Origin: Haliotis rufescens
Lineage: Eukaryota
DNA: 64,000 bases
Reading direction: 5' to 3'
Assembly: GCF_023055435.1 (NCBI RefSeq)
Contig: NW_025964361.1
Coordinates: 32,860,001-32,924,000, forward strand
Part shown: positions 29,101 through 58,915 of the stretch, one piece after another
How the letters are laid out: the number at the start of each line of letters is the position of its first letter
Position numbering within the stretch: position 1 is the stretch's first letter
Made by a program: the position numbers and the translations under genes
The notes under the pieces: model-generated
Told to the model about the DNA's origin: nothing
The model's database searches: none
Seen by the model: only the letters and a program-made list of their open reading frames with translations

Positions 29101-32100
29101 ATGCAGGGTTCTACACATTTGCCTTGACCTTATTACCATCTAAAAGGTGACTATGCTTGTCGTAAGAGGCGACTAACGGGATCAGGTGGTCAGGCTCGCT
29201 GACTTGGTTGATGCATGTCATCGATCCCAATTAATCACTGGATTGTCTGGTCCAGACTCGATTATTTACAGAACGCCGTCATATAGTTGGAATATTGCTG
29301 AGTGCAGTGTTAAACAACAAACCAAACCATAAATCTTTGGAGTGGAAGCATCTGATCCATACCCTGGTTAATCCAGGTCCTTTACTAGATTGCTCAGTTA
29401 TGTTTCTTCCAATTTCTACCTGTATCCTGTTTAGGCCATGTTTTATACATATTCTGACTTGTGCGTTGTGGTTTTCCCGAAAATTGAGTTGACATATCAG
29501 GGACTATAAATTTGAAGAAGACATTATAAGAATTTGACACATCCAGTATGGAACTTTCAGGTTAAAATAGTGATAGTGTTGGGGCTGGAATGTGAGTTCA
29601 ACACAACAGGATTCGATCCATCCCATCTGAGTTCAGCACAACTGGGTGCGACTAATTAAAGAATTGAATGGCCTGTTTATCACTTGTTTGACTTGTACTT
29701 ACTTTGCATATAGTTTTTATTTGCTATTATTGATATGTAGTGTTAATTATTACTGACTCTCCCTGGTGTATGTAGGACTACCAGACACGAGGTGCCTTGC
29801 GGGAGTATGATGGCCTCCAGCCCATGCTAGACCTCCTCAAGTCCGAGTACGCCATCATCCAGAAGCTGTCCCTCCTGTCTCTAGATCGGGCTTCACAGGA
29901 TGGTGGGTCCACTATGTCTGCTTCTTACAATATGTCATGAATATTGAATAATTTATCAGCCAGAGAACCTGCTGGAAAAATGAAAGCAATTTCTGTTGTA
30001 TAAGACCTAAACACTACAACCCTTACATGGGGAATGTTGACCGGTAAGGTCTTATGTGGGCTTCTATTTGTAGCGGAAAATCGAGCCTCATTGAGAGAGC
30101 TGGAGGCGATCTCCCACCTGATCAAGTTCTTGGCCCACCCGGAGTGGAACGATCTGCATGTGATGGCGGTGATGGTGTTGTCTAACCTGCTGGAGGATGT
30201 GGAGAGTCTGGAGGTAGGTCATCACTCGCCTCATCCAACCTTCCAATTTGTTACTTGGAGTGAAACACACAAGCCAAACCTATGGTGTAGCCTCAAGGTT
30301 AAAGCATTTACTTTTATGCCTAAGGCCCTGGTTTGAATCCCCAAATGGAAACAATATGTGAATCACATTTCTGGTGTCCCCACTATGATATTGCTGTAAT
30401 AATGCTGAGAGTGGTGTAAAACAATACTCACTGACTCACACAAATGAGGCCAAGTCCCCGGTTTGAATTACCCCTATTGGTTTAATGTTTGAAGCCCAAT
30501 GTTGGAGTACTTTGTAATATGTTCTGTTGCTGGAAGAAAATTAATACCTCTGTCACATACATGATGTTTTCTCTCTGTTATTTGTGTAAATTTAACATAA
30601 ATGGTCCATAAAAACAGAGCTGATTGCTTTAAAGATGAAAATCTAACTGATTAATAATTAAATGACTAGATTTATTTTGAAAGCCTTTAATATAAATTTC
30701 ATACTCTGTGGGTTGCTGTTTACTCTTCATTTTTAACCCTCACATACATTAAAAAGGATATCTGTCTAAAGGATTTGTTAGGTTTTGCAACGCGTTTTAG
30801 TGATGTACAATTGTTAATGCTATGAATGTGTCTTGGTATCCAGCAAATCAAAGAGACTGGTGGTCTGAAGAGGCTGGTGGCAATCATCACTGACCAACCC
30901 CCTGTGGAGGAGGAGACCAAGGGGGGCAAGGCGGACAAAAAGGCAGGGTCGCGCGCTGGCAAGAAGAGTGCCAAGGGAGAGGGTCAGTTTCCTTTATGTC
31001 TGTCACAATGTAATGCAAGCACACTTTGGCATCACTTGTATATCGATACAATTGTTCTCTTCCATCAATATGTGAGTACTCATGATTGATTTGAACATCA
31101 CTTAAAGAGACCATATTATTGTGATAATCCACTGTGGTGCGTTCATGAAAACATGTTATTATTGTAGAAATTTGTGGCTGAAGATTGATGGATTGGAATG
31201 TTTTAAAGAAAAACATTTTACCAAAAAAATGTTGAAAAAATGTGAAAAGTAAAATTATTGACTGTTTCAGTTTTTCCTCATCAAAACATTGTCTTCACAT
31301 TCACTTTTGCCTTCAGTAGCAAACATTTTAGAAAATTAGTGAAATATATTCATCCTAATGTTGTAAAAATTGCAGTGATGTTTTATGTATTCCATTGTCA
31401 ATCTATCCATTCTGCAATGCAGCCAAGAAGGTGATCGAAGAGAAGGATGAACAGTCCCCTGGAGGAGATTCCATCATCCCCACCCTCCCCGATGTCAAGA
31501 TGAGTGCCGCTCGAGCCATCGCTCGGTCAGCACGCAGTGGTCAGTATACATCTATATCACATTGTTTGAATGAATGTCTGTGACTGACTGTGTGTTATCA
31601 TGTCCTGTTTGTGTTGACTTATGTCATCATGCCCTGATGGTGTGGACTGTGTGTCATCATGCCCTGATGGTGTGGACTGCATGTCATCATGCCCTGATTG
31701 TGTAGACTGTGTGTCATCATGCCCTGATGGTGTGGACTGTGTGTCATCATGCCCTGATGGTGTGGACTGTGTGTCATCATGCCCTGATGGTGTGGACTGT
31801 GTGTCATCATGCCCTGATGGTGTGGACTGTGTGTCATGCCCTGATGGTGTGGACTGTGTGTCATCATGCCCTGATGGTGTGGACTGTGTGTCATCATGCC
31901 CTGATGGTGTGGACTGTGTGTCATGCCCTGATGGTGTGGACTGTGTGTCATCATGCCCTGATGGTGTGGACTGTGTGTCATGCCCTGATGGTGTGGACTG
32001 TGTGTCATCATGCCCTGATGGTGTGGACTGTGTGTCATGCCCTGATGGTGTGGACTGTGTGTCATCATGCCCTGATGGTGTAGACTGTGTGTCATCATGC

Positions 32101-35100
32101 CCTGATGGTGTGGACTGAGTGTCATCATGCCCTGATGATGTGGACTGTGTGATCATGCCCTGATGGTGTGGACTGTGTGTCATCATGCCCTGATGGTGTG
32201 GACTGTGTGTCATCATGCCCTGATGGTGTTGACCTTGTGTCATCATGCCCTGATGGTGTGGACTGTGTGTCATCATGCCCTGATGGTGGAGACTGTGTGT
32301 GATCATGCCCTGATGGTGTGGACTGCGTGTCATCATGCCCTGATGGTGTGGACTGCATGTCATCATGCCTTGATGGTGTGGACTGCGTGTGATCATGCCC
32401 TGATGGTGTGGACCTTGTGTCATCATGCCCTGATGGTGTGGACTGTGTGTCATCATGCCCTGATTGTGTGGACTGCATATCATCATGCCCTGATGGTGTG
32501 GACTGTGTGTCATCATGCCCTGATGGTGTGGACTGCATGTCATCATGCCCTGATGGTGTTGACCTTGTGTCATCATGCCCTGATGGTGTGGACTGTGTGT
32601 CATCATGCCCTGATGGTGGAGACTGTGTGTGATCATGCCCTGATGGTGTGGACTGTGTGTCATCATGCCCTGATGGTGTGGACTGCATGTCATCATGCCT
32701 TGATGGTGTGGACTGCGTGTGATCATGCCCTGATGGTGTGGACCTTGTGTCATCATGCCCTGATGGTGTGGACTGTGTGTCATCATGCCCTGATTGTGTG
32801 GACTGCATATCATCATGCCCTGATGGTGTGGACTGCATATCATCATGCCCTGATGGTGTGGACTGTGTGTCATCATGCCCTGATGGTGTGGACTGTGTGT
32901 CATCATGCCCTGATGCTGTGGACTGCATGTCATCATGCCCTGATGGTGTGGACTGCATGTCATCATGCCCTGATGGTGTGGACTGTGTGTCATCATGCCC
33001 TGATGGTGTGGACTGTGTGTCATCATGCCCTGATGGTGTGGACCTTGTGTCATCATGCCCTGATGGTGTGGACTGTGTGTCATCATGCCCTGATGGTGTG
33101 GACGTTGCTTCCAGCGTGACTGGAGTGTATGTCATCCTTTTAGCACTAAGACCACTTTGTGGAACAAGGCCAGGTCTCCTTTCACAGACTGTTGTGATGT
33201 AGTGTCACATATGCACTCTCACTTTGCTGTGGGGGAGAGATTCTCACATATATTATTCATCATATAGCTAGTTCCTACATAACGGCCTGCTTCCTCCCTT
33301 TTTCAGTGGAGAACCGTAAGATCCTACACGAGCAGGAGGCTGAGAAGATGTTGATTCATCTGCTGTCTCATGAGTCAGTGGACGTACAGAGCGCAGCAGC
33401 CCAGGCTCTCGGCATCATGTGTGAGAACCTCAGCAGCAGAGACTCCATCCGCGAGTGGGGTCAGTCACTTGTTACAGTTTATTATGACATATGGCTACTG
33501 ACACTTTAAAACATAACTTCAGTATAATTTTGTTTTAGTTCTATTACTTTACCACTTTATGTTGGTTCACATAACTGCTTAGTGCGACAAGGTTTAACTT
33601 TGGTCAGGCCATTTCAAATATTCCATCATTAAAGTTTTTTTCTGTCATTCAGATATGTGTACCGGTACATTGATCGTTACTAGATGATACTGTTAATTTT
33701 GCTGTTGTATCTGTCCATGAATAGTATTAAAGGTTTTGGGAATAGTCACTCCCAATGGTTGTTTGTATTAGTTGATGCCTGAAGGTATTTATTCTTGTTA
33801 CAGAGGGTCTAGCACCTCTGATCAGGCTGCTCAACTCGGAGAGTGGAGACGTGAAGGAATCTGTGACACTAGCCCTCACCAACCTCACCACAGCCAACTC
33901 CACAAACTGCAAGTCAGTTGTTGCACAATGTTCTTTTTACATCGTAGCAGACAGTAATAGTGATTAATTGGAATCTCAACTGTGTGTCTTTTTATATTTA
34001 ACATATCAACACAAGTCGATAAAAGTTGCCGCAGAGTTTTAAACTTTTGTTAATGAGTGTCTTCATGAGGATGGAATTCTATTTATCATCCAAATCGTTC
34101 TTCCAACTTTTTCAGTTTGTAAACAGCAATAACCAGCGTCTTTAGTCTAAAATGTACAGTGAACCAGCCTCAGTGGTAGAGACCCATGCTTGCCGTAAAA
34201 GGTGACTATGCTTGTCGTAAGAGGTGACTACAAGATCGGGTGGTCAGGCTCGCTGACTTGGTTGATGCATGTCATCACATCTCAATTGATGGAATTTTGC
34301 TAAGTGTGGCTTTAAACAACAAGCAAACAAAGAGATTACTGATTGAGATCTCATGGAGGCTGATGATGTTGCAGTGGTCTTCTAAACTTTGAGATGCAGT
34401 TCCATTATAGCCATATCTCCTAGGATATCACGCAAACGATATCGTCTGTCTAAACCAGTTTTGGACGATAACATGATGTATTGGTCCAGCATCTGGCACC
34501 TTATGCTTATCATAATAGATGACTAAATGAGGATTTGTTGGTCACAATGTGTGCTGATAGTGTGTCATCATACTCTCATGCAGTCAACCACTGGTTTGTC
34601 TGGCTCAGCTAATTATTTACACCTGCTGTGATATAGCTGGAATATTGCTGGCTGCAGAGTAAACCATTCATTGTATCTTTTCTTCAGATTTCATTGTCAT
34701 CCGCAATCTTGTTAGCCCAGTTGATGGTGTGACAGCTTGTCATGGAGCTGATCAGAGTTTGATTCACTACATGAAATGATTGTTGAAACATGATGAAAGA
34801 CATCTTCCCAAGGCAAGGGAGTTAACTGACAATAAAGGCCGGAATATCTGAGTTATATTATGGCTGAACTAACAAGTCTATACATAGTCAATTAAAAAAT
34901 TGTTTAACAAATTTGACATCTGATTCGTAAACAACATGGTGACTGCCATGCAGATTTTGGACGTTTGCAGGATTTGCAAAGCATGTGTATCGCCAATTGG
35001 GCGTTGACAGATATTTTCCAAATCATTTCATTTTTTTTATCAATGTGCTTAAGTGATTTAATGCACAATGAGGTAAGACCTGTTTTAGTACAATATAGAT

Positions 35101-38100
35101 CTTGATTACCGATCAGATCGTCTTGACTGGGTGCCGTCATTTTCTTTGAAGCAAATGCAAGTGAAAGGAGGGGTTGAATCTGATTGGTCGATAGGAGGGA
35201 CAGCCAGTGGTGGTGGTACGAACAAACCACAACATTCCAGCCTAGTTTGACATGAGTGGAAACTAGACTTCTATAGTCAGTTAAGTCCCTTGCCTTGGCA
35301 AGATGGATGACATGAGTGGGAACTGGACTTCTATAGTCAGTTAAGTCCCTTGCCTTGGCAAGATGGATGACATGAGTGGAAACTGGACTTCTATAGTCAG
35401 TTAAGTCCCTTGCCTTGGCAAGATGGATGACATGAGTGGAAACTGGACTTCTATAGTCAGTTAAGTCCCTTGCCTTGGCAAGATGGATGACATGAGTGGA
35501 AACTGGACTTCTATAGTCAGTTAAGTCCCTTGCCTTGGCAAGATGGATGACATGAGTGGAAACTAGACTTCTATAGTCAGTTAAGTCCCTTGCCTTGGCA
35601 AGATGGATGACATGAGTGGAAACTAGACTTCTATAGTCAGTTAAGTCCCTTGCCTTGGCAAGATGGATGACATGAGTGGAAACTAGACTTCTATAGTCAG
35701 TTAACTCCCTTGCATTGGCAAGATGGATGACATGAGTGGAAACTGGACTTCTATAGTCAGTTAAGTCCCTTGCCTTGGCAAGATGGATGACATGAGTGGA
35801 AACTAGACTTCTATAGTCAGTTAAGTCCCTTGCCTTGGCAAGATGGATGACATGAGTGGAAACTAGACTTCTATAGTCAGTTAAGTCCCTTGCCTTGGCA
35901 AGATGGATGACATGAGTGGAAACTGGACTTCTATAGTCAGTTAAGTCCCTTGACTTGGCAAGATGGATGACAGATCACTGAGATAAGGTTTGTGTAACAT
36001 AACCAGTTTATGATTGTCTATACCATGTATGTGATATATGTGTTCCAGTGAGATGATGAACCTGAATGGCCTTGACCCACTGATCCAGCTGTTGGCAGAC
36101 AGTCGGGAGGAGGCTGTAGCCAACACCGCCAGCGTCCTCACCAACCTGGCGCAGGAGGAGGTGCTGCGTATAGAGTGTCTCAACCGCGCTGTCGTCTCTT
36201 CCCTCATAGACCCTCTCAAGACCAGGTAGGGGATACACTCCATGAGCTTTACAGACTTCCTCCAGGGTAGACAACAACCTCCGTGGTCTTGTAGATTGAG
36301 CATCTGCCTTGAGAGTGGAAGGTTGATTTTTCGATGCCCAGCCGCATCATACCAAAAAACAGAAACAGATGGTACTTGTTGTTACCCTGCCTGACACTCA
36401 GCACTAAGTGGATAACACAAGGACTGGTCTGCTCAGCATCATTATACTGTGTCTGAGTGGTGTATTCATGTTTAACTGTGGCATGGTATCTCAATGGGCT
36501 AGCACTATAAAGCTTGCATTAGTCTGGACAGTGACAGAAACTGAAAGTTTAAGTCCACTAGTCCTTATAATGATAACATACAGCGAAGCCCTTAACAAGG
36601 GTAAATTTCTACTAGTCCTTTGTCAACGGTTGGACAGTTTGGCAAGGACTAAAGGACTAGTGCCAATTTCTAACCCTGCATGAATGTTATGTTACATCAT
36701 CTCCTTAAAATTATGAATCTTTAATATGTTGCATGGATGAACCCAACCTTGGTGTCTCTTAGAATAATGTTCAGTTATTATTTTATCAAAAAACCAATGT
36801 TTTACATTGCAAACCATTTACCCTTGTGTGAACATATTTTCAAATACAGTAAACTACGGTTATAACAAACTCAAAGGGACCATTAATTTTAGTTTGTTAT
36901 AACCGTAGTTCGTTATAAGCATATATACAGCATAACTACAGCAAATAGTCGGGACAAAAAAGCAAGTTCGCTATATCCGTCAGTTTGTTATAAGCGTGTT
37001 CGTTATAAACGTAGTTTACTGTAACTTAATATATAATGTTGCAAATATTCCCGAAAATAATGAGGTGAGCATCAGGTCTACATGACTATTTTTTCTGAAA
37101 AAAAGAAGAGAAAAAGTGAATTTTGAGAGATTGCTATTATTCATCATTTCAGCAACACCAATGTCCAGAGTAAAGCAGCTCTCGCTTTAGCAGCCTTTGT
37201 GTGTGATGCTGATGCCAGGACAGAGGTGAGACGTCCAGCCTTGTCTCACCAGCACTGCATATAAGCACTTGTCTGCTTCACTGGGGCTTCCAGGGGCACT
37301 TCTGTTGCCACTTGTCAGTATTATCTTGTCATATATTACACAGAGCCTGTGAACCCGGCGAGCATTCCGGGTTATGATTGGTCCCCAGCAATCTATGCTG
37401 GGTGTAAGAGGCGACCTAATGGATCGGGTGGTCAGGCGCGGTGACTTGGTTGATTGTGTGTCATTGTACCACAACAGCATGGATTGTTTGTTATATCAGT
37501 CACTGGATTGTCTGGTCCAGACTTTGTTTATTTACAGACAGCTGTCCCATAGCTGGAATAGAGCTGAGTGTGGATTAAACAACAAACAGCGTGTGAACGC
37601 ATTTGTGCAATGTGCAGAGTTCTGTCCCTTTATCTTAGTTGATGTGAATCCGAGATTTTACTGGTGATTCATTCATTGTATATTGCAGTGTTTACTGGTG
37701 ACTGGTAAACTTTGCTTCATCTAAATCTGTGCAGTTAGGTCCTAATACTTACAGGTGTGTTCTTTGTTTCTTCAAGCTACGTGTGTCCGGTGGAGTGGAG
37801 CCCTTGATTGTTCTGTTGCATTCTGGGAATGATGAAGTGCGGAGAAACACGTCCTGGGCCATCACAGTTTGTGGTGTGGATGAACCTACTGCGACAGAAA
37901 TATGTAAACTTGGGTGAGATATGTGAATATGATTCAATAGGTTACTGCTTTCCTTGTTAGCTGTTAAAAGATGTATATCATAATCAAGTTTCATTGAAAA
38001 AAAATATAGCCAACAGACATTGGCCAACATGCCAAAAGCAATCTTTTACTAAGAGTGTTATATCTCCATATTTGACAAGACTTACTGTAGCTGTAGCGCT

Positions 38101-41100
38101 AAGATCATTTTAGGAGTGGGATGCTGATCAAATAATCTTGTTAAGGTATTGTCAAAGATATATCTTCTTTTAAATAAAAAAGCTTTAGAGCTTCACACAA
38201 GATGGCTATGATTAGCCTAAAATATTTTATAGTTTGATGTTTTTAGAAAAAAAATAGATATTGCCATGGAGCCTTCAATTAAGAATCCTGCTGTGAAATA
38301 GCATCATTTTCATGTTTCCAATAGAAGACTTGTGTTAATCATTATATTGTTGTGTACCTTATATTGTTAACATGTTGAACAATCGTTGACCAGTCCATAT
38401 ATAATCCTCGTAATTAACTATCCTGGAAAGACTTTTTGATGTTCCCTTACAGATTCGGACAACCCCAAAATAATGAATAATGGGAAAATTATTTACTGAA
38501 AAGCAATATTTTTTCCTTTGCAATAATTGATCCACACAAAAGGTAAAACCGAAAGACCAGTGTCACAAGCTTAACTAACACCACTCGTAGACAACATTCT
38601 CAGAATATCTGCTCAAACTTCTGAAATGTCTTATCTAGATTATGCCCACCTTCTGACCAGCGCCTGTTCCACAAAACAATCCCATACTTTAACTTAGGCT
38701 TATGATAGTGCGAAAATCACTTTGTGGTATGGGGACCCTGAATTCTTAAAAAGAGACCTGTAACCTGTGTTGAACACGCCTTCTATGCCAGACAGTTGTA
38801 GATATATGTGGGTGTGTTCCAGTGGTCTGGAAGTCCTGCAGCAGATTCAGATGTCCAGCACGCGACGCAGTCCCTTCGCAGATGCCGCACTCGAGAGACT
38901 GCTCGACAGCAACCTGTCCGCGAAATACGCCCTCTCGGGACATCTAGGTACACATCCCTGTCACAGACACCTGGAAGATGTTATGTCTTACATCAACCCC
39001 ATTTTGACTAGTCATTAGTAGGTGAACTGGATGTGGGTCAGATTATATCCAGTAATGATGAGAAGTCAGTAACTCTTGTTGCTATAGATGCTCTGTTGTG
39101 TTTCTCTGTATTACAGACACTATTGCCTAATATATGATTTTGTTCTCTATCATTAGTCTTTATACTTTTATTATTATTATGATTTCAAAAAATGTTTTAA
39201 TCGACACGGAAAATATATTTACTTAGTCAGATATTATATCTTGTTGGTTCTCAATAACTATTTATCACTGTTCAAAATGTGTATGACCGAAGTGGCAAAA
39301 TTCTTCTATTTTTTTGTTGAGAATATGTAATCATACTGTCTTGTTAGGTTGTTCAGAAGAATGTTTGTGGAACTAGTTATAATCCCATTTCCACATCTAC
39401 CAGCTTAATATGTATCTGGAATTTACTGGATTCAGTTTAGAAATACACGTGTGGGGATTCTGGGTAAGTCCCATGCCACCTCTGCCTGTCATAAGAGGCG
39501 ATCCTATGGATTAAGGTAGGCGATCTGGTTGATTGGGGGTCGGCGTTCCGGTTGATTGGGGGTCATCATACCTGGACCTTGTGGATTGTTATCACAATGT
39601 CAATAACTAGATTGTCTGGTCCAGAGTTGATTATTTCCAGCTGCGGTCATATAGCTGGAATATTGCTGAGTGTGGCGTTAAACAGACAAACAAAGTCCAG
39701 AAATATCCCACTGGAGAATGATCTTTCACGACATGTCCTATGTCTGTAGGTAGTGGGAACCTGATAGAAGATGGGTTCTTTGATGCCGGTCAGCTGAAGG
39801 CAGGCACCAAGTTCCTGTCCCTGGAAGACTTCTGCAAACAGGAGATGAATGACAAGAGACCAACGCTGCTCATCAACTCTAAACAAGAGTGAGTATACAC
39901 CCTGGTGGTTGTACAAAGACACATTCTATAGAGAATGGCAGACAAGATGACTCCTTGATCTGAATGTTGTGTATTAAGCTAGGTTCATCTGAATCTTAGA
40001 TAATCAGTCACATATTTTAGGAAACACATGCATATTGAGAGAAATAGACGATACACAGACTTTATAATATTGACAGTGCCTGATGTACAACAAAACATAG
40101 AGATTCAGACTCACCAGACACCAGAATATAGTCCTACATATACATGCACATTTCAACATGCAGAGACACTCTACTTCCAATATACGAACATGTAAGGAAG
40201 CACAAATGTTATAGTTTTATAAATGTTCAATTGTAGTTGGTTTATTAATGGGATAATAGTTTCAAGGTGTTGTGTGATAATATCTTTGTTTGTTTGTCTT
40301 AGATCCTGATACTGTCGTCAAGCACATTCCTATAGTAGTATATTAAAGCAGTTGTAATTCATAAATTGTGTCTACTTTGTGATTTAATTTTGATGAGATT
40401 CTAACCCCTTCCTCCCCTACTTTGGCATTTTTAATATTTTCTGTTCACATTTTCCTATGAATGTTAGTCTTTAAGGATTTATTTAGTTGGTTCAAGGTAA
40501 GCTAAATATTTATTCATTATTTTTTCCTGGTTAAGAAGGGTACGCATTTGAAATAATCTTAAAAAGTTTGTGGCATTATACCTCATAGGATTAGACTGCC
40601 ATTAGCCTAGCAGTGACCTGGCAACAACAGACATCACCATAGCAGAAGATAAAGTCAGTGGTTATAGTCGACCACAGGTGATCTAACAAATAGTATATCT
40701 AAAGTGTGTGTTAAACTTTACATGTATACATCTCAGGAAAGTTGAGGTGAAAGAAAGTCCACCTCCACCACCTTCATCAGAACCTGATTCAGAGACAGAC
40801 TCTCAACAATCACCCGGACACGGGAATAGGCGGTTGTCATGGAAATCCATTCTAAAGAAAAAGTATTGAGAATAGACAATAGCAAGATAGATAGAAGCTT
40901 CTTTTCTGACAGAAATGTTAACCACTCTTCCCCTGATCTTCCATCTGTCTGTAAATGATACAGAGGTAATGGAGGAGAAGGGTTAAGCTGCATCCATTGC
41001 AGCATCTCTGTATAGACTAGAGTCAGGGGGATGCGCCATCAGAAAGGAGAAAAGCTTTTTGCTTTTTTCATACTGTTTCCTTTCCTGAGATCCTAGCGAG

Positions 41101-44100
41101 CTGCCTTGCAGGGTGATTTTTCCATCACCTGTGAATCTTGACATTTTCACTTTTTCTCAGAACCAGCTTGGCTTTATTAGGGTTGCTGTTTGTAAACATC
41201 CATTTAAATCGAAAAATGAAATAACAAATAAACATGTAATGTAAAAACCTTTTTAAGATTTTCCTTTCTCTGCAACATTCCTTTGTTCAATAAGGTGATC
41301 TTTTGACCTCATCCTTCCATCAGAATGAATATCATAAGCAAAGATAGTTCCTGCTGTTTGTTTACTGTATTGTAGTTAAACATATGCAAGTCAATATGAA
41401 GTCTTGTGTCAAAACCTAACTGTCATCTCTCTGAGGGCATGGGTGGCCGAGTCGTCCTAGGCGCCTAGAGTTGCGTCCCTTGGGCACATCAGGAACCTAT
41501 GATTGTGGGTTCAAATCCCACTTCGCCCTGATTATGTTTCTAGGTTTGCTTGTGTGTTTCACCAAAGTGGTAAGCATCTAATACCTGCAGATAACTGGAA
41601 CACTGTTGAGGCCGGGGATAAACCCAACTACTCACTCACTATCATCTCTCTGCAGATAATGTATAGGTCCTACTTCAGCTTTGCTCTTTGTTAGCAGCAG
41701 TATAATGGTATTGCTCAGCGATATTGTTTTTCTTCTGTAACAATCAGAGCTCCAGATAAGCTGCGTATCTGTGTAAAATACGCATCAGAAATACAGAAAT
41801 ACGCAGTAAAATAAAATCCAAGCGTATCAAATACGCAATGAACATTACAGATACGCTACAAAAATAAAACTTGTGCGTATCATCAAAATATTGTGAAGTA
41901 ACCCTGCGTATTCGATTAGCAAATCAGCAACTTATTTCGAAATTATAAACGGGCATTCCGTCAACCTTGCTAAACTCCACGATGACAGTTACATCATGAT
42001 CATTTGCCATCACACTTTCTTGTGTAAAAACTAGTGGGTAACAGAAATTTGAATACCCAGATAGAATTACTGATACCCAATGATTTTAAAATTCATGTGT
42101 AAAATACCCACAACACCAAAAGCTTATCTGGAGCTCTGAACAATGAAAGTAAAAAGTCAGGTGATTTTCAGAACAAATCCTAGATAGATGTATTTGACAT
42201 TGGTATAGTGTTAGAGTCAGTAGACGACTAATCTAGCAAGGATAGTCCGAAGAACGTAGTAAATTTATTCATAGATTAGAATTAACTTTGTATACTTGTA
42301 TTTGGTTTAGATAAATTAGAAAATCATGATACAAAGCTGTTTTTATCATATAGTTTATTAAATGATTTTTGGTAACTTCTTCACTATAATTTTCATATTA
42401 TGTAAGCAATGCTGAATTAATGTTGTTCAGAAAGTGTAATTAAAAGTAGAATGGAGTGTATCCTCATGTAACCTGTTGACTGTCCACGTTGTGTACCTAG
42501 GCCGTCCCCTCCCCCCAGGCAGGAGGATAATGAAGCCCTGAAGGCTGACAGCTCCAAGACAAGCGTCTCTGGGAAGTCATCTCGAACTGGGCGAGAAACT
42601 AAATCGTGAGTTGCTATCATTATTCTAAAAGTCATATATACAGTGTGCAAGAACTTTTTGGACTGTCAAATTACTGCTTGGATTCAGAAGATTGTTTTCT
42701 TCATCTTCTCAGTTTAATGTGTCTATTATTGTACAGTAGTTGAAAATATTGTTATATTTTACTAATTAATCAGTGCCCTGTAAGGGTCACTGTTTACTGT
42801 GTTCGAGCTCTGCCACCACTGCAATTGGTTTTCTTAACCATGCACTTATGACAGATGTTAGATACTTCATACCTGATATAACTCCTATTTTACCCTGGAG
42901 AATCTTTCTGATATATGATTGGATGGCATTAAAGGTCAAGGTCACTCAATATGAACTAGGTGTGCAAAGATTGTGTAGAAGATAACTTGAGTATTTATGA
43001 ATGGAACTTAATGTATATGATCTCTAAGGTAGGGTCTTGATTGTATTAACATTTGGTTGACCTCCATATGAGGTCAAGGTCACCAGAGGTCGAATTATGG
43101 AACATGGTTTAAATTTCATGAAATTTCAAATGAATTCATGATAAATCTAAGCATTTTCCAATCACTTATAATTGACTCTCAATAATTAACTCAAAACCTA
43201 TCATATGACATGGTTGTGTCAAATGTCAAGGTAACTTTCAAGGTCGTTCACTCATGAAATGACTTGTAAAAAGTTTCATTTAGGAAGTATGAGCAGTTTG
43301 ATATGTACACTACATATTTGTAACACCATCTAAGTTAAAAAATGTAACATTCTCACATGAGATTGGATGAACTTAAAGCTGGACTATTGCTGACTGTGGC
43401 ATAGATATGTCAAACAAAGCTCAGTATTCAGAGTGTGATGTACATATGGTTAGACAGAATATCCCCTATGTAGCCATGGTATTTTTAACAGTGTGCAGCA
43501 AGCCTAGAACAAGCTTATCAAAGAACCACTTTCAGCAATCATTTCTCTACCTCAGTGTCTATCATCATACAGCGTTATGTATTGACAAGATCGTCAGTTT
43601 ACCCGTTTATCAAAATCTGTCATCTTTCACCACTTAGGTATACAACATGTCAGCTGATATCTTAACATGAACCATAGGTAACAGACACAGCCTAGTAACA
43701 TATTTGAACATTTTGGTGTGTTGTTATTAAAAATGTGGCATTTATTGCTCTTTAAGATTGGGAACATTCCTGTCGTGATAAGATGTAATTTTCATAAGAA
43801 AAACATACAAGAAGGAAACATCTTATCCTATGGAGACATCTCTAAAGTGATCTTGTCAAATTGATGACTTTACTGTAATAATATACAGATTTCTCTCATC
43901 ACGGGGAGTCTTTACATGGGTTCTGTTATGGACCCTTTTGTTGCATCAGTAAAGATTGATAGCCATTTTATCATATACTGAAACAGAATGATGGCTTTAT
44001 CGTAATTACATCACTCTGGTGTTTAGGAATGGCTTGGCATGTTAGGTGTGTCTTATCTGTTGGAGTTGGGTGTTTTTATAATATCACCTGTATCAACACT

Positions 44101-47100
44101 GGTGGTAGGAAGAGTGTTGTCATCAATATAGAGTAGCTCGGATGGAGAAAATGTCTGCAAATTGGTTTGAATATTTAGGTGTCAGAAACTTGGTTCATCT
44201 TTTTTAACAGTTGTTACCAGGGATTTCAGCTAAAATATCATTTGGGACTGTAATTTTCTGGTATCCTTGATAGTGTGTAACAGAGTCATTCTCAAAATAC
44301 ATATATGATCTCCAGTTAGTGAGAGAGTCTGAATAATAAGGATGCCACTGATATGTGCTGCAAAGTCCTTGTCACATAAACTACCTCGTCAGTATAATAT
44401 ATCCTTGACAGCAGCTTCCCTTGATATATTTGAATGCGAGACTTTGAATGTTTCAGGTGTACAACCATCAACTTGAACTGAACCTTAGATTTACCGATGT
44501 GGCACTACCATGTCCAGGAGACAGAAAATTAACATTTTATTGTACTCGTACTTCGACAAGTCAAACTATTCTTCAATAATAGAATCAAATTTTCAAAAAT
44601 CTGTTTATTGTGAAAGTACATTTTTCACCCAGTTCATCTCACCGCCACATTGTGTGGCATTAAATGGTGGCTGACAGTTCCATTCATCCTGCACATGGTG
44701 GTGTCAAATCCTGCTCTTTGATGAGTTCTGTAGAACCTAGTACAAGCCAAGTTAAGAAAACAGTTGTGATAAGAAAGATATTGTCAAATTTGTCATACAG
44801 ACAGCAGTAGACTCTGGACAAGAAGACTGAGTCTGCACTTCAACAAGTGAAAATATATAGGCTTCCTCATTCTTGATACCAATGGTGTGTTCAAATGCTC
44901 AACTAATATATTTGCATGTGCAGGAGAGAGGAGGTCAATGAACCTATGTCTCCAACTGAACAAGAAGCAGAGCCTGAGCATGAGAATAGACATAAGAAAT
45001 CTGCCCCGCCCAAACGATTGTCATGGAAAACCATTATCAAGAAAAAGTATTGAGATAACAGAATTAGATAGACATTTATCAGCTGCAGTTAGAGACATAT
45101 TAACCCTATTTCCCTTCTTCACTTCCCATGAAGCTGTGGTGATGTAGATGGGGAAGTCATGTACTGCTTGAAGCTGTAGAAGCTGTACAGCTGGGGTAGT
45201 CCATCTGTTGCTGTAGACCAGATATCAACATAGCTTAAGTAAATATTAGGGCTTGTTTTGCTTTTTCTCTTTTTTTAAATAAGAACTTTAAACAATTTGT
45301 AGTTTTTTTTATTTTTGCTTTTTCAGAATTAAATAATTCTTGTATTTTTGCTTTTTAAGCAAATAGTATTTTGCTTTAATTGCTTTAAATTCTTTTTTTC
45401 AGAATAAGGATTTTAGAGGAAACTCATTCAATTGACAATTCTCACAGTGAAGTCTTTTATGCATGAAGACCATGTAGCTTGGGATTTTAACACAAATCTC
45501 TGATTAGGTTTGAGGTTATCGTGTCATAGTCAGAAAGGCCTAATCATTAAGAATTATGGTCTTTTAAACACTCTTGTTATTGCTGTGAGACATTGTAAAA
45601 CATCCTTACATCCTTACATTACAATGCTTACATTGATGTTGTAAACAGTCATGTTTTTATGAAGATACATGTACTTAAATAATGTATGTTAATGTGTTTA
45701 GCAATTGCAAGAAAAGGTTAATAATGAGTTTTGAAAATAAGCAAACAAGATATTATTTATGTAAACTTGTGGTTAATAACAATTTGGCAACAAAGCCATG
45801 TATTTTTTACGGCATTATAACACAGTGAAAGTGGTGAGTGAGATTTACAAATGGAAATATCACATTTATCAGCCCCTAAGGAACAATGTCAGCCAGTTTT
45901 GTTGATCTGGGCAGGGTTTTGCTGGATTCCCAGCTGAGGAACATGTTGTAAAATCTGCAGCTGGTTCTGTAGATGCTGTTTGCCAACAATGTAGTGTCTT
46001 GTGTGTATTGGTGATACTACTTCCCTGACAGCAATCCCCACATGCCGCATTAAGCCCATGCCATGTCTGAATTATTGTTTTGTCTCGACCATCATGTTTG
46101 TGAGATTTTCATGTGATGAATGTCAGAGAGACAAAGTTAGATTCATCATTTATTGATTGAATATGTTAAAGGTTAATTTTAATTGTCAAACTGATATTAC
46201 TAAAGGGGTATGGCATGGGATAATTGACAAGTTTGATTATGAAATTTGGTGATGAATATGAATCTTAGCAGATAATGATTACACACATTCACAGTGTCTT
46301 GGTTACATGCTCAGTACAATGTCTGGACCTAGGAAACAGACAGCAGCCACTGAGCATGGCTCCACTCTTAGGCCTCAGCCCTTCCTACAAGCACTGACAC
46401 ATCACTGCTTCTTTGCCAGCTATGACTGAAGCTTATATTGCTTATTTGCTTTAACACACTTTAGCCTGCATCATGTCACAGTGTTATCAACTTCAGTTGT
46501 TACCTACAGGGGGCAATGGAACAGCCATTAGGATCAAGGAGCTCTGCTACGTACGCTATAAGTCTGATAATAGTGTCTGTGTCAGAAGTTTCAAGAGTAA
46601 ATATGCCATGACCCACCTTAGGATGGTGTCTTCAGTTAGATTGATATTCTGATATTTATCAGTATGTATTTCATTCCTATGACTATGAACACAAAGTGAA
46701 TCTTGGATATGCTGAATGGTTTAAAAGATACATCCTTGTACATATACTACTTATGTTTTGCATCTAGCTGCCTTACGTTTCTAAGAACTTATACACCAGG
46801 ATACAATGCTTTTATTGATTAAGAATTTAAATATTGTTGGTAGTACGTGCAACTTGTTGCACTCTGATACCTGTAACTGATACTGAGCTCTGTGTTTATG
46901 TTATAAAATTTGAAAAGTTCTGTATTATTGGATTGATGTTGTCCTTGACTTCGCTGTCATGGTATGACAAAGACAGACCAATTTGGTTTGTTGTTTTGAT
47001 TTCTTTTTTTAATTCTTTTCCTCTTGCTACGTTTTGGCTAGGCTCACCCGTAAAATTTACATAAATTGACCTAGCCAACAAATTAAAGTTAACCTACAGG

Positions 47101-50100
47101 ACTTGTTATGATATACAAAGAGAATAATCAACTTGAATTCGATTTATCTTTTCTGTCAGAATTAATGTCATTAAGTATTAATGCATAAGCTTGCACCCAT
47201 CTTTATAACCCTATAACAATCTCCTACATAACCCTGTACCTCTCTCCTACATAACCCTGTACCCCTCCTCTACATAACCCTGTACCCCTCTCCTACATAA
47301 CCCTGTACCCCTCTTCTACATAACCCTGTACCCCTCTTCTACATAACCCTGTGCCTCTATCCTACATAAACCTGTACCCCTCTCCTACATAACCTTGTGT
47401 CCCTCTCTTACATAACCTTGTATCCCTCTCCTACAAAACCCTGTACCCCTCTTCTACATAACCATGTACTCCTCTCCTACATAACCATGTATCCCTCTCC
47501 TACATTAACATGTTCTCCTCTCCTACATAACCCTGTACCCCTCTCCTACACAACCCTGTACCCCTCTCCTACATAACCCTGTACCCCTCTCCTACATAAG
47601 CCTGTACCCCTCTCCTACACAACCCTGTACCCCTCTCCTACATAACACTGTACCCCTCTCCTACATAACATTGTATCCCTCTCCTACACAACCCTGTACC
47701 CCTAATGTACATAACACTGTACCCCTCTCCTACATAAACATGTACTCCTCTCCTACATAACCTTGTACCCATCTCCTACATAACCTTGTATCCCTCTCCT
47801 ACATAACCTTGTATCCCTCCCCTACATAACTCTGTATCCCCCCCCCCCTGCATAACCTTGTATCCCCCCCCCCCCCCCCTACATAACCCTGTATCCCTCT
47901 CATACATAACCTTGTATCCCTCCTGCATAACCTTGTATCCCTCTCCTACAAAACCCTGTACCCCTCTTCTACATAACCCTGTACTCCTCTCCTACATTAA
48001 CATGTACTCCTCTCCTACATAACCCTGTACCCATCTCCTACATAACCTTGTATCACTCCCCTACTTAACCCTGTATCCCCCCTACATAACCCTGTACCCC
48101 TCTCCTACATAACCCTGTATCCCTCTCCTACATAACCTTGTATCCCTCCTGCATAACCTTGTATCCCTCTCCTACATAACCCTGTATCCCTCTTCTACAT
48201 AACCTTGTACCCCTTTCCTACATAACCTTGTATCCCTCTCCTACATAACTCTGTACCTATCTCCTACATAACCTTGTATCCCTCCTACATAGCCTTGTAT
48301 CCCTCTCTTACATAACCCTGTATCCCTCTCCTACATAGCCTTGTATCCCTCTCTTACATAACCCTGTATCCCTCTCCTACATAGCCTTGTATCCCTCTCT
48401 TACATAACCCTGTATCCCTCTCCTACATAACCCTGTATCCCTCTCCTACATAACCTTGTATCCCTCCTACATAACCCTGTATCCCTCTTCTACATAACCT
48501 TGTACCCCTTTCCCACATAACCTTGTATCCCTCTCCTACATAACCTTGTACCCCTTTCCTACATAACCTTGTATCCCTCTCCTACATAACCCTGTACCTA
48601 TCTCCTCCACAGGCGCACCAAGGCTCAGCGTGAGCGCGAGGAGAAACAGAAGGAGGAGGAGATCCAGGCTCAGCTGGCCAAGGAGGCAGAGGCTCAGGCT
48701 GCTGAGGAGAACAAGCCCTTCACCACCCCGGCCGACCCCGCCCTCTATAAGTACATGGAGGACGTCATGGATAAGATTCAGCCACTGCCCACCACGAGGC
48801 TGCAGGTGGTGGCACTCGCAGAGTACGTAGTTGTCCTGATACACTGTGTCACGTATTCCTTGTAGAGACAAGAGGATCTGTTACAGATTGGCCTCATAGG
48901 CTGTGTGTTAGAAGAATAGTATCATGTTTTGTCTTTGTCTTTGTGAGAGCAATGATTATATGACAGATGTAATTTGTTTTCTATTTTGCTGCACATATAA
49001 ACTTATGTGTGTTAGGTGAATATGATACTGTGTTCAAAATTTCAGACAAGCCAAACAAATACATTTTGTCTATCTGATTAGGGGAAACTATAAGGATAAA
49101 CTGTGTTTTGATGTGGCTATGTAGAAATATAATAAGTACACTATATATCTTGTGAAGGGACAGTGGGTCATATTACAAGTGGCTTACATGTTGCAGAAAG
49201 TGTACTGTATTTCTTAGTCAGTCATACAGACACTGAAACAAATATATCTATTTCAGCCCAGGAAAGTCTATAATAATTTGCAAGTCTAGATTACTGCAGT
49301 TTCAAGGTCTGAAATTGAAAAGTGTCTCTGGGCTCCTTCTTATTACTTTTTATTAAGATGATTCAACAACTGTCCTTTCTGTGAAATATTTTCATTTCAG
49401 AGACTAGATGTTAATCTGTTTATTTCTTAAATGATTGTATTTCCTGCCAAACTGTCATTGTGATGAGCTATGATTGCTTGTGTGGTGGCAGGTACGTGGC
49501 GGAGAAGATGGGAGGGCCTATAGCGAAGGGGCAGGTGACAAACTTCAGCTGGGAACTACCTCTCAGTCAGATCAAGTTCGAGCTCAAGTCAAATGTTGTC
49601 CCCATCGGCAAGATCAAGGCTGGAATCCATGTGCACAGAGCACTGCTCTTCAAGGTGAGATCTCAGAGCATTAGCATATGTCTTACTTTGCCAGGTCCTG
49701 GTTCCAGGGTAGCCTGGTGGTTAGAGCATTTGCTCGCCATGACAAGGGCTTGGTTTTGATTCTCAACATGGGTACAATTTGTAAAGTATATTTCTGGAGT
49801 TCCCTGTTGTAGTATTACTGGGATATTGCTAAAAGGTGCGTAAAATCTAGGGCTGTTACGATTCACTCGCGTATTGTGATTCAAACCGTATCCCTTCATG
49901 AACTGAATTCTTTATTCGTGGGCACAAGAATCGAATATTTATCCAAAAAATAAAAAGTCTTTTTTTCTACTAAGAATATCCATAAGAACTTATTATATAC
50001 ATATGTAGATTTCTTCAAAGACAACACTCATATATATTTTATTTGACAGTAATGTGGTCACTGGTCATTGTCGCATTTGAGCAGATAATATAGAACCTTG

Positions 50101-53100
50101 ATAAATGCAGTATATAAATATATAATAATAATCATTAACACTGTCAGCTTGGTCAAACCATGTCAAATAATTTATTGTTTCACTGAATATAATAAAGAAT
50201 ACATCAACTGTTGACTCGTGAAAAAATATTTGTATTCGTTACCCTATGCTTATGATACTGTCTTATTTGCCTTATCATGTATTTATTGCACCCCTAGTAA
50301 AGTCATTCTCACTCACTTATATCACTGTGCAGAAGACTTGGAGAAGGGTAGCCCAACAGTCAAATGGTTCTCTTGCCAATCAACTGGGTTTTACTTGTAT
50401 AGCCCAATCACGGTGTCCTCCCTCTACTGCAGGTCTACAGCGTGATTTGACTGTAGGAATTCACTTGTATATCTTACTGATGAGGATTCAGAACCATGGT
50501 CTCTTCATGATTAGTTGATATTCGGGATTATTCATAGTTTCATGAGTGTCCTCCATTACAGCCTACCAGAACCACATTCAACTCTTGGGAGTAGAAAGCA
50601 TTTCTTGAAAAAGTTACGTTTAGACCAGGGAGAATGGTGACACAGTGTTTGAAGACTATAAGCTTGTGTTTTGTTGCAGACACTGGCTGACCGTATTGCT
50701 GTTGGATGTTCCCTGACAAGGGGAGAGTACAACCGAGCCTGGAACGAAGTCATGCTACCAGAAGAAGATGAAGTGGTAATGTCACATTTCTCACCAGTAA
50801 TCACTGATAATGATGAAGTTGTCAAATAGGTGTGTGTGTGTGTGTCTTGCTTGTTAAATGCCCATTCAGCACTATTCCAGCTGTATGATGGCTGCTTGTA
50901 AGTAATTGAGTCTGGACCGAACAATCCATTAATTGATATTATGGTCAACTACACTGATGTGCTGTCAACCAAGTCAACGCACCTGACCATCCCATCCATT
51001 GGGTTGCCTCTTACAACCAGTATAGGTTACTGGGAACCAACTGTAACCCAGGATTTCGACAGGTTCCTAACTTAGGCACCTCTTACGACCAGCATAGGTT
51101 ACTGGGAACCAATTGTAACCCAGGATTTCCACGGCTTCCCAACTTAGTCACCTCTTACGACCAGTATGGGTTACTGGGAACCAATTGTAACCCAGGATTT
51201 TCACGGCTTCCCAACTTAGTCACCTCTTACGACCAGTATAGGTTACTTGGAACCAATTGTAACCCAGGATTTCCACAGCTTCCTAACTTAGGCACCTCTT
51301 ACGACCAGTATAGGTTACTGGGAACCAACTGTAACCCAGGATTTCCACGGCTTCCCAACTTAGTCGCCTCTTACAACCAGTAAAGGTTACTGGGAACCAA
51401 CTGTAACCCAGGATTTTCACGGGATCCTAACTTAGGCACCTCTTACGACCAGTATAGGTTACTGGGAACCAATTGTAACCCAGGATTTCCACGGCTTCCC
51501 AACTTAGTCGCCTCTTACGACCAGTATAGGTTACTGGGAACCAACTGTAACCCAGGATTTCCAAAGGTTCCCAACTTAGTCACCTCTCACAACCAGTATA
51601 GGTTACTGGGAACCAACTGTAACCCAGGATTTCCACGGCTTCCCAACTTAGTCACCTCTTACGACCAGTATAGGTTACTGGGAACCAATTGTAACCCAGG
51701 ATTTCCATGGGTTTCCAACTTAGTCACCTCTTACGGCCAATATAGTTTACTGGGCACCAATTGTAACCCAGGATTTCCACGGCTTCCCAACTTAGTCGCC
51801 TCTTACAACCAGTATAGGTTACTGGGAACCAATTGTAACCCAGGATTTCCACGGCTTCCCAACTTAGGCACCTCTTACAACCAGTATAGGTTACTGGGAA
51901 CCAATTGTAACCCAGGATTTCTACGGCTTCCCAACTTAGTCGCCTCTTACGACCAGTATAGGTTACTGGGAACCAACTGTAACCCAGGATTTCCATGGGT
52001 TCCTAACTTAGGCACCTCTTACGACCAGTATAGGTTACTGGGAACCAATTGTAACCCAGGATTTCCACGGGTTCCCAACTTAGTCACCTCTTACAACCAG
52101 TATAGGTTACTGGGAACCAACTGTAACCCAGGATTTCCACGGGTTCCTAACTTAGTCACCTCTTACGACCAGTATAGGTTACTGGGAACCAATTGTAACC
52201 CAGGATTTCCATGGGTTTCCAACTTAGTCACCTCTTACGGCCAATATAGGTTACTGGGCACCAATTGTAACCCAGGATTTCCACGGCTTCCCAACTTAGT
52301 CGCCTCTTACAACCAGTATAGGTTACTGGGAACCAATTGTAACCCAGGATTTCCACGCTGGAGACAAATTCTACCCCATGTCCGTAAAGGTCTTTCTCTG
52401 GTAGGGGTGTGCGAGGGTCCAAAGAGAATCAGGGATGGGGTCACCTGAATGTGACAGCCTTGAGGCATGTGGCATAAAGACAGTTATGCAATTTTTAGGG
52501 AGAGTTTATAGAAATAATGGACAGGGGTTTAACATTGCGTTCTGGATTATTGCACTGATATAGCAAAGTGCATGAATGTCTCTGTGTGTGTGAGTGCATG
52601 ACTGTGCCTGTCCTAGTCCAGACTAATACCGGTTTTATAGTGCTCGCCCACTGAGATAGCATGTTGTAATCTCATTCAAATCAGATCTTAGTTCTCGCTA
52701 TGGCTAAACAAAGATCAGAAGGCAGCTTTCTTTTGTTTTACAGCACTAATTTCAAATTGGTGACTACACTTCGAAACATATTTTGACAAATTCTCAATTA
52801 CAAATTTGAAACCTGAACAAAAGAACATTTTTGAAGGGTTAATAGATGGTACAGATTGTATTGATTCAGTCGTTAAACCCGTAACTATCGTTTGGAATAC
52901 CCCGTGTTAAAGTTTTCGGGGTTGCATGATTAGAAATCACATTCCAACTCTCACTTTCATAATCTGGTAAGCGACGCTCTGATTGGTCTGATGAAAGGTC
53001 GTTCTGACGTGACCCCTTATGGGATGTCTTCAGATCTTTGTTTAGCGGTAGCGAGAACTAAGGTCTGATTTTTTATGAGATTGAGCATGTTGCAGTTTAA

Positions 53101-58068: not shown

Positions 58069-58347
58069 GAGTGAGTGGGTTTAACACCGCTTTTAACAGT
58101 ATTCCAGTTATATCGCAGTTATATCGCGGCGTGTCAGCTTAATGTGGGAGGAAAGCCCAAAGTGATGCAGGTCTCAGACGTTTACAACTTCGGTGAAAAC
58201 GAGCACGGGTATGGTGCTGACAAACCTAGAAATATAATCGGGGCGAACCGGGATTCTAACCCACAATCAGAGGTTTCTGGCGTAGCCAAGGGACACAACT
58301 CTGCACGGCGAATCGTGGCGCCATAGACGACTAGGCCACTCATGCCC
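58069..58347 (-). mobile_element. tRNA(Leu/Ser-like) SINE
   Basis: Homologous to the 41434 and 63126 copies. Confidence 0.8.
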
Positions 58348-58349
58348 AT

Positions 58350-58915
58350 CATGGATCCGCTCTACAGCTTGGACAAGCATATCACAGTCATATGCAAATG
58401 TGCATATTACCATATCGGACAAATCAGGAAATATGTAAACGTCGAGGCTTCAAAAATGTTGATCCAAGCTTTTGTCATCTCCAGGTTGGATTATTGTGAA
58501 TCTCTCCTCTATGGCCTCCTCCCACGGAATGATGCAGAAAAAACTACGGCGTGTTCAGAATACAGCTGCAAGAATTCTGACAAGAACACCTGAGAGAGAA
58601 CACATCACTCCAATATTGACTGAACTACACTGGTTTACAAGGCAATGTATAGTTTGGCTCCTGCATTCTTACAGGAACTGATAGTACCATACAACCATGC
58701 ACATTCTCTCCTATCAATATATCAACATCTGCTAGTGGTGCCAAAGACATGTACCAAAACAGATGGCGATAGGTCATTTCAACACTTTCTCTTTAAAAAG
58801 ACACTCAAAATCTGTCTCTTAAAGAGATCCTTTGACCAGATCAATCATGCTCTAAACGCATTTGAGCAGTTGTTAATTGGAAAATGCGCTATTCAAATTC
58901 TTTATTCTTAATTAA
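58350..58915 (+). mobile_element. 5'-truncated L2/CR1-group LINE, RT C-terminal region (frameshifted)
   Basis: LIQAFVISRLDYCESLLYGL then, after a frameshift, KLRRVQNTAARILT...HITPILTELHW; typical L2/CR1-group ORF2 C-terminal motifs. Confidence 0.88.

Follow-up and report, generated by a model that had tools for sequence, protein, structure and literature searches.

Two related exons in the disordered loop of abalone ARMC3 and their alternative splicing

Known systems and the abalone gene

Alternative exons that lie in disordered protein regions and bear short linear motifs and phosphosites form a general class. Two exons of the cilia and sperm gene ARMC3 in the abalone Haliotis rufescens, here called A and C, are frame-keeping exons of the same kind, with the twist that a duplicate gives a second copy of the motif. 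Tandem duplicated exon substitution events, as described in the accessible part of PMC9741552, likewise involve two homologous, alternatively spliced exons in one gene; compared with the events described there, the abalone copies stand on either side of a constitutive exon, are used as additions and not as substitutes for each other, and lie wholly within a disordered loop. PP1 regulators with both SILK and RVxF motifs, such as Rif1 (available text of PMC3937515), share with exon A a conserved (S/G)IL(K/R) motif in a disordered region, diverging flanks, and nearby kinase sites. Unlike these regulators, abalone ARMC3 has no consensus RVxF, and its candidate SILK motif sits on an optional exon and is lost in exon C and in Littorina. 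Vertebrate ARMC3 has the same architecture as the abalone protein, with armadillo repeats and an inactive papain-like EDR1-type domain, and the vertebrate loops examined contain neither SILK-like nor RLSWK motifs. A Vac8-like role in ribophagy is attributed to vertebrate ARMC3 (Lei 2021, as cited in the accessible parts of PMC12859697 and PMC10318531), and the noted link of the protein to cilia is supported by the accessible text of PMC13345628, which names mouse ARMC3 as a C2a component of the central apparatus.

We analyzed a stretch of 64,000 nucleotides (the window) and consider it probable that exons A and C are independently optional, duplicated cassette exons which place a basic phospho-motif in a disordered loop, so that docking would be dosed by splicing. 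The 23 exons in the window, spliced and translated, gave the H. rufescens RefSeq ARMC3-like isoform X1 with zero mismatches, and the proposed ARMC3 identity was borne out by armadillo repeats, a C-terminal PF14381 domain, and orthology. The Pfam match to the EDR1/CTR1/ARMC3 peptidase-like domain begins at residue 817. A fold search of the PDB returned armadillo-type chains, while a sequence search of the PDB found no ARMC3 structure and a search of the ESM Atlas no usable match. No Pfam family was found in exons A and C or in exon 16 alone.

All exons discussed here are on the forward strand. Exon 16 (39750..39888; contig joint 38944>39747) is constitutive, encodes an ordered segment with an invariant G-F-x-D-x-G, and is followed by the loop. 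Exon A (exon 17, 40737..40862, 126 nt) is present in RefSeq models X1 and X2 and has contig joints. Exon B (exon 18, 42501..42605) lies between the two copies and is in every Haliotis model seen, and exon C (exon 19, 44924..45046, 123 nt) is in X1 and X3 of H. rufescens and in X1 of H. cracherodii. Exon 20 (48613..48822) is constitutive and encodes a long helix running into the peptidase-like domain. The H. rufescens isoforms X1 to X4 (XP_046372006.2, XP_046372009.2, XP_046372010.1, and XP_046372011.1) have 969, 928, 927, and 886 residues and contain A and C, A, C, or neither, respectively; the H. cracherodii models X1 and X2 have 969 and 928 residues, and the single models of H. rubra and H. 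asinina are without exon A and without exon C. These RefSeq models of H. rufescens and H. cracherodii have the same exons with the same boundaries as the window, and their isoform names say nothing about paralogy or motifs. The original prediction had called the two exons hidden and possibly mutually exclusive; by annotation they are neither, because X1 to X4 show all four combinations. Automated annotation thus already contains the two exons, and their use is mostly ordinary alternative splicing.

Relationship between exons A and C

As predicted, each exon follows an AG and is open in the phase-2/phase-2 frame of exon B. Exon A has 42 codons, with an acidic and proline-containing spacer followed by RRLSWKSILKKK; exon C has 41 codons, ends in KRLSWKTIIKKK, and was seen in Haliotis only. 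The peptides end alike, RRLSWKSILKK in exon A and KRLSWKTIIKK in exon C, and among the last 12 codons we counted 8 identical ones, 1 synonymous change, and 3 conservative changes. The 5' parts have diverged, as had been noted, yet they are probably still related, as 8 of 300 shuffles reached their score.

Several comparisons agree with the proposed duplicated origin. BLASTN of 40831-40871 against 45015-45055 gave 90% identity over 41 nt (E ~1e-9), and BLASTP of the two peptides an E value of 2e-8, with a score that none of 2000 shuffles reached. The likeness continues for ~380 to 400 nt into the downstream intron (score of 143.5 versus 104.6 ± 9.3, 0 of 300 shuffles), where 40872..41250 on the forward strand is paralogous to 45056-45430. 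Likeness of the upstream introns was not significant (20 of 300 shuffles), and within the 64-kb window BLASTN detected these two copies and no other. Exons and flanks are thus homologous and the phases are equal, as in a duplicated exon pair. Judged from these alignments, exon C is a local duplicate of exon A that includes the downstream intron stretch. Exon A and adjoining intron sequence would have been copied locally into the intron that follows, presumably in the abalone lineage. Because the conserved block contains only one synonymous change, gene conversion or constraint at the DNA level could also be a source of the likeness.

Transcript evidence for splicing

The transcript data were contigs from 4 of 24 listed runs; RNA status was a program's guess, and none of the four was a DNA run. 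For exon A, the contigs contained the predicted junctions 39888>40737 and 40862>42501 as well as the skip 39888>42501. Inclusion and skipping had depths of 13.5 and 15 in run X5 and of 66.6/57.5 and 39.4 in run X6, and run X1 had the skip joint only; according to a warning of the contig program, such depths cannot rank parts of one gene. Hence, exon A is a cassette exon, with inclusion as well as skipping in the RNA-type contigs from two studies, and, with 126 nt, keeps the frame, in line with the regulated cassette use that had been suggested. The listing, in which repeats predominated, covered 15 of 66 joints and 24 of 917 loose ends; none of the listed joints involved exon C, and exon 20 was outside the stretch compared. 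Inclusion of exon C is suggested by the RefSeq models and by an unexplained depth of ~15 in run X5.

Mutually exclusive use, in which one copy of the motif would be swapped for the other, might be read from run X6, which includes exon A with little depth on exon C, and run X1, which skips A and covers C. However, the organism codes of these two runs differ, which means that tissue may not be what sets them apart, and run X5 appears to hold both exons. The constitutive exon B also stands between A and C, and RefSeq has models with both exons in two species and with neither in others. We regard mutual exclusion as very unlikely.

The donors of exons A and C are the weakest of the gene, with 4 of 9 consensus matches compared with 5 to 7 of 9 in the other 20. 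Both exons are followed by GTATTGAGA (40863..40871 behind exon A), and reading through it gives K-Y-stop. As the two donors are equally weak, inclusion may depend on cell type. The TGCATG at 44913..44918 on the forward strand, within the acceptor of exon C, had been proposed as an Rbfox element, but it may have arisen by chance. The hexamer occurs 19 times in 28,204 nt and in 1 of 22 acceptors, with a ~40% chance of at least one such acceptor, and at the paralogous position copy A has TACATG instead.

The donor followed by a stop had also been interpreted as a special switch. The arrangement is generic, with a stop within two codons behind 4 of the 6 other phase-2 donors, which also speaks against exon C as a composite last exon. 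In that case the donor would be ignored, translation would stop after K-Y, and the product would be a short ARMC3 that keeps the armadillo repeats, ends in the basic motif, and lacks the C-terminal peptidase-like domain; 45047..45567 on the forward strand, which begins with the weak donor, would be 3' UTR only in this event. Run X1 contains a single contig of 656 nt (44945-45567) that passes through the donor at a depth of 37.4, compared with 3.5 to 8.8 for the five other listed intron-bearing contigs of the run. The donor is also among the two weakest of 22, the downstream introns of both copies are alike, and in our reading a 12-nt insertion behind 45505 in the contig allele of run X1 spells AATAAA. 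Against this, AATAAA is absent from 45047-46200 of the window, and the evidence comes from one of four runs, from contigs only and with strand unknown. Run X1 has no coverage on 44924-44944, so nothing links exon B to the exon C contig, and the contig shows no poly(A) end. None of 246 proteins ends in KKKY, a search for short or truncated proteins gave 0 of 364 candidates, and none of the RefSeq models listed stops at K-Y-stop. Use of exon C as a last exon, which is compatible with the dosed-docking reading, is a possibility that we consider less likely than not. For exon A, the contigs across the donor are at background, with a depth of 4 to 8, as have other intronic contigs.

The disordered loop and its candidate motifs

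Residues 661-772 of the ARMC3 loop have pLDDT values below 50, and in molluscs generally the disordered stretch of residues 661-780 is a hot spot for alternative splicing. Examination of 24 isoform sets from molluscs, other lophotrochozoans, and tunicates gave 49 inserts at two sites, 10 at the site of exon A and 39 at that of exon C. A [RK][RK]x[ST] site was present in 14 of the 49 inserts (5.7 expected by shuffling) and [ST]P in 28 (15.8 expected), counts that come from inserts which are not independent. An optional insert at the exon A site occurs in gastropods of three lineages, mostly with K[SG]I[LM]KK at its end, and Haliotis exon A aligned with the Littorina insert with a score of 69 versus 30 (0 of 2000 shuffles). 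From these comparisons, we infer that exon A is old among gastropods. When exon A was compared by BLASTP with the complete proteins of Littorina and Gigantopelta, the result was not significant, and alignments of most insert pairs were not above shuffles. RLSWK was found in 5 of 233 full-length homologues, all from Haliotis. A search with the loop against a 50%-cluster library gave 39 matches, in which the best stretch always began in the conserved exon-16 part, and of these matches 15 were read, none of which had the motif. Protein P0251, which ends in the loop and looks like a partial model, was left out of the counts. Bird ARMC3 loops carry RRSS too.

The disorder and variability of the loop, together with high-copy repeats in the introns around exon A, would suit a neutral origin of A and C as an exonised repeat or as splicing noise in a tolerant loop. 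However, the window holds two copies, and both exon bins have a depth of 0-36, far below the 10^3-10^5 of neighbouring true repeats. In two studies, contig depth puts the inclusion of exon A at roughly half or more, the reading frame is preserved, exon A has counterparts in distant gastropods, and all 39 loop-search matches are best in the conserved part of ARMC3. The neutral reading is very unlikely, and for exon A it is already largely refuted.

The predicted PKA-type sites are present as candidate sites, RRLS at position 690 and KRLS at 766 of protein P0007, and match the PKA consensus [RK][RK]x[ST]. Two other interpretations of the motif were discarded: an amphipathic helix, as the hydrophobic moment of 0.18-0.42 was not above that of the rest of the loop, and an LIR motif. 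LIR motifs follow a rule on flanking residues in which basic flanks are unfavourable, and the flanks of the WxxI matches are basic.

A specific version of the preferred reading names PP1 as the partner, with SILK of exon A docking PP1 on ARMC3 and adjacent PKA phosphorylation as a switch. The original prediction had invoked both a SILK and an RVxF-type motif. The first applies to exon A, which satisfies the SILK consensus (S/G)IL(K/R) given in the available part of PMC3937515 within the disordered region, but not to exon C, which has TIIK. Gigantopelta has KSILKKK, and the exchange of S for G that the consensus allows is seen in the KGILKK of Babylonia gene b and Nucella; Babylonia gene a ends similarly, in RGIMKK. 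The seven gastropod segments at the A site comprise four strict SILK motifs and one loose, with a chance per insert of 0.002-0.005 by shuffling, although the looser I[LM] pattern was picked after seeing the data. The RVxF-type motif did not hold up. An L-tolerant RVxF pattern exists and is the sole pattern that RLSW matches. With L instead of V or I, RLSW fails the three consensuses quoted in PMC3792071, [RK]x(0-1)[VI]{P}[FW] and two stricter ones, and strict RVxF had no match in P0007 or in the loops of 233 proteins. SILK always lies N-terminal to RVxF according to PMC3792071; here it is two residues behind RLSW, and the rest of the loop after it contains no RVxF of the consensus form. SILK alone gives only slight enhancement in the accessible text of bioRxiv 10.64898/2026.09.09.750541. 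PP1 binding in LAP1B or Scribble is not mediated by SILK, the Littorina exon has WKGLKNK, and by sequence comparison the loops of the bivalve and deuterostome proteins examined contain no SILK. Overall, conservation among gastropods lends some support and suggests SILK-mediated PP1 binding of exon A as a modest lead, and we consider PP1 docking with a PKA switch rather unlikely as a whole.

Each exon adds an acidic spacer and then a short motif of basic and hydrophobic residues, immediately preceded by a PKA-type serine. In the dosed-docking reading, which we prefer, a partner with an acidic surface or a groove may dock with low affinity on this motif, possibly in the central apparatus of the axoneme or in the autophagy machinery of spermatids. 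Phosphorylation of the RRxS serine would weaken docking, and splicing would set the dose of the motif to 0, 1, or 2 copies and leave the folded domains untouched. The most far-reaching version appears improbable. In it, the old optional SILK exon of gastropods would be a splice-controlled PP1 anchor on the C2a projection in some types of ciliated cells, and abalone would have duplicated it, gained a PKA site before the motif, and also used the copy as last exon of an armadillo-only ARMC3 that ends in the motif.

The end of exon A is conserved across gastropods, which makes a cheap peptide test possible. If the motif does not bind PP1, the locus would be a tidy, ordinary exon duplication in a disordered loop of one animal group, already in automated annotation. 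The Chlamydomonas central pair bears PKA anchors and PP1 (available text of PMC2174360), and if the motif binds PP1, the finding would bear on axonemal PP1 anchoring, which that 2000 review names as open, and would tie it to splicing. In the far-reaching version, ARMC3 would be a named, switchable axonemal PP1 anchor, and its truncated form could separate ciliary from autophagy roles.

A duplicated exon pair

Exon 20 (48613-48822), used as a search query, retrieved Haliotis ARMC3-like proteins, and the spliced coding sequence of the window's 23 exons translates exactly into H. rufescens RefSeq isoform X1. The H. rufescens isoforms X1-X4 (969, 928, 927, and 886 aa) form one protein cluster with H. 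cracherodii X1, and H. cracherodii X2 (928 aa) lies in a separate cluster. As originally described, exon A (40737-40862, 126 nt) and exon C (44924-45046, 123 nt) are each preceded by AG and can be read without a stop in the phase-2 frame that exon B (42501-42605) uses; their peptides end in RRLSWKSILKK and KRLSWKTIIKK, respectively, with GTATTGAGA after each. The two exons had been proposed to be hidden and possibly mutually exclusive, but both are already known from the public RefSeq annotation, whose automated models of Haliotis isoforms have loops with A and C, with A only, with C only, or with neither, and hence treat them as independent cassettes. The single models of H. rubra and H. asinina lack both.

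The 3' ends of exons A and C are 90% identical over 41 nt, and the 64-kb window contains no third copy of this end. With 300 dinucleotide shuffles as the reference, likeness beyond chance was seen for both the exon 3' parts and the downstream introns (0/300 each), while the exon 5' parts were weakly alike (8/300), and the upstream introns showed no clear likeness (20/300). Hence, the exons are a duplicated pair, and the duplicated unit comprised the exon plus at least ~400 nt of the intron behind it. The abalone ARMC3 pair belongs to the established class of duplicated alternative exons described in PMC9741552. Among the matches listed in the literature searched on ARMC3 and on SILK and PP1 at the central apparatus, mostly main texts of non-subscription papers, none dealt with the paralogy or motifs of exons A and C, and the listed papers on molluscs did not mention ARMC3.

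High-copy repeats (depth 10^3-10^5) occupy the introns flanking exon A at 39458-39743, 41460-41745, and 41744-42139, the last with 19-nt inverted ends resembling a miniature transposon. A 23-bp tandem repeat of ~60 copies (47220-48598) stops 15 nt short of exon 20, whose acceptor region it makes up. Long tandem repeats at 20-8770, 10798-11603, 31586-33103, 35248-35972, 51007-52357, and 60194-60876 (units of 37, 50, 30, 60, 72, and 83 bp, respectively) account for most long repetitive ORFs in the window, and the broken reading frames at 58327-58908 resemble the terminal part of a LINE reverse transcriptase.

Inclusion of exons A and C

We compared contigs, presumed to derive from RNA, of four of the 24 listed runs, each from a different study, over 38600-47150. 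The predicted junctions from exon 16 (39750-39888) to exon A and from exon A to exon B were present at a depth of 13.5 in run X5 and of 66.6 and 57.5 in run X6; skipping of exon A was seen in runs X1 (100.4), X5 (15), and X6 (39.4), and run X10 had no exon joint among those listed. No exon C joint is among the 15 of 66 joints listed for 38600-47150, a stretch that ends before exon 20. By bin arithmetic, the unexplained depth per exon C base was ~15 in X5 and ~4 in X6; X10 had no such excess. In run X1, a single 656-nt contig (44945 to 45567, depth 37.4) crosses the exon C donor, while the five other listed intron-bearing contigs of this run have depths of 3.5-8.8. Since 44924-44944 is not covered in run X1, this contig has no visible 5' link; it is a hint, not proof, that exon C is used as a terminal exon. 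The contig carries insertions of 21 nt at 45423 and 12 nt at 45505, the latter reading AATAAA ~60 nt ahead of the contig end and absent from the window allele.

Exons A and C share the donor AAA/GTATTG, the weakest of the gene's 22, matching 4 of 9 positions of the consensus donor (5-7 for the others), which suits regulated inclusion. Read-through at either stop would, as predicted, delete the peptidase-like domain part. The stop is not peculiar to these two exons: 4 of the 6 other phase-2 donors likewise meet a stop within two codons (6/8 including A and C, 0/14 donors of other phases). A protein ending in KKKY was not found among 246 retrieved proteins, nor did a search for shorter proteins find any. 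Of the 22 acceptors, one, that of exon C, contains TGCATG, a hexamer with 19 occurrences in 28,204 nt; given a rate of 2.3% per acceptor, the chance that at least one of the 22 would carry it is ~40%. The equivalent position of exon A reads TACATG.

Counterparts in other molluscs

RLSWK is present in 5 of 233 full-length homologues, all from Haliotis. Gigantopelta, Littorina, and two genes of Babylonia have an optional insert at the A site, the loop position of exon A; a Nucella gene without an isoform pair has a segment resembling these inserts. The Littorina insert aligns with Haliotis exon A (score 69 vs 30, 0/2000 shuffles); the two have KVEVKE, a run of prolines, and W-K in common, but the Littorina insert lacks SILK. 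The A-site segments end in KSILKKK (Gigantopelta), KGILKK (Babylonia gene b and Nucella), or RGIMKK (Babylonia gene a); a 9-residue Babylonia insert has no such end. For most insert pairs, the alignment scores did not exceed those of shuffles, and BLASTP gave no significant match to whole proteins, so A-site homology rests on position and end motif. For exon C, the homologue set compared contained no counterpart outside Haliotis, suggesting a duplication that is confined to this lineage and predates the split between H. rufescens and H. cracherodii.

Babylonia (P0052/P0066) and Nucella (P0053/P0068) apparently have two ARMC3-like genes each, and both Babylonia genes retain an optional A-site exon with a SILK-like end. 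At the C site of oysters, mussels, scallops, and clams (e.g., P0033, P0159, and P0190), recurrent four-residue microexons add [ST]P (PTSP, PSPP, or HSPT).

A disordered loop with candidate docking and phosphosites

The AlphaFold model has pLDDT values <50 across residues 661-772, a range that takes in exons A, B, and C almost entirely. Residues 611-655 (39750-39888), before the loop, are ordered with invariant G621, F622, D624, and G626, and we take this stretch to resemble the start motif of an EDR1-type domain. Exon 16 alone matched no Pfam family, and the Pfam EDR1-type match starts only at profile position 70 (residues 817-955, profile positions 70-202). The ordered, invariant stretch and the late profile start suggest that the loop may be an insertion within the peptidase-like domain, not a linker ahead of it. 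A second disordered loop comprises residues 291-332 (30844-31539); several bivalve isoforms vary in length outside the studied loop (e.g., P0021), and a second splicing hot spot may therefore sit there.

The serine after RRL or KRL in exons A and C is a candidate PKA site by the [RK]RxS consensus. Both exons had also been proposed to dock PP1. The SILK consensus (S/G)IL(K/R), as quoted in PMC3937515, is matched by exon A and not by exon C, and RLSW fails all three RVxF consensuses quoted in PMC3792071, the first of which also appears in PMC4794898. In favor of docking, the S/G exchange among gastropod A-site ends is what the SILK consensus permits, and a SILK-like end has a chance of 0.002-0.005 per insert. 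Likewise, ARMC3 is a component of C2a (PMC13345628), and the Chlamydomonas central pair carries PP1, mostly on C1 rather than C2, and an AKAP (PMC2174360). Planarian armc3 knockdown impairs cilia (PMC12859697). However, besides the missing RVxF match, SILK is placed N-terminal of RVxF in PMC3792071, and other studies report barely any PP1 targeting by SILK alone (bioRxiv 10.64898/2026.09.09.750541) and dispensable SILK motifs in LAP1B and Scribble (PMC8569552). We consider PP1 docking by exon A a doubtful candidate function.

Abalone ARMC3 has two frame-keeping duplicated exons with weak donors in a disordered loop, and exon A is variably included. In the most likely mechanism, the exon motif would form a basic-hydrophobic docking patch that phosphorylation of the adjacent serine would weaken; cell type would control inclusion of the exons, setting a patch dose of zero to two per ARMC3. 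We surveyed 49 inserts at the two sites in 24 hand-picked isoform sets, each a subset of a species' isoforms and with related species counted separately. Basophilic kinase sites were brought by 14 of the 49 (5.7 expected) and [ST]P by 28 (15.8 expected). By these sequence motifs, alternative splicing makes the ARMC3 loop a hot spot of predicted phosphosites, and the abalone exons are an instance of this pattern.
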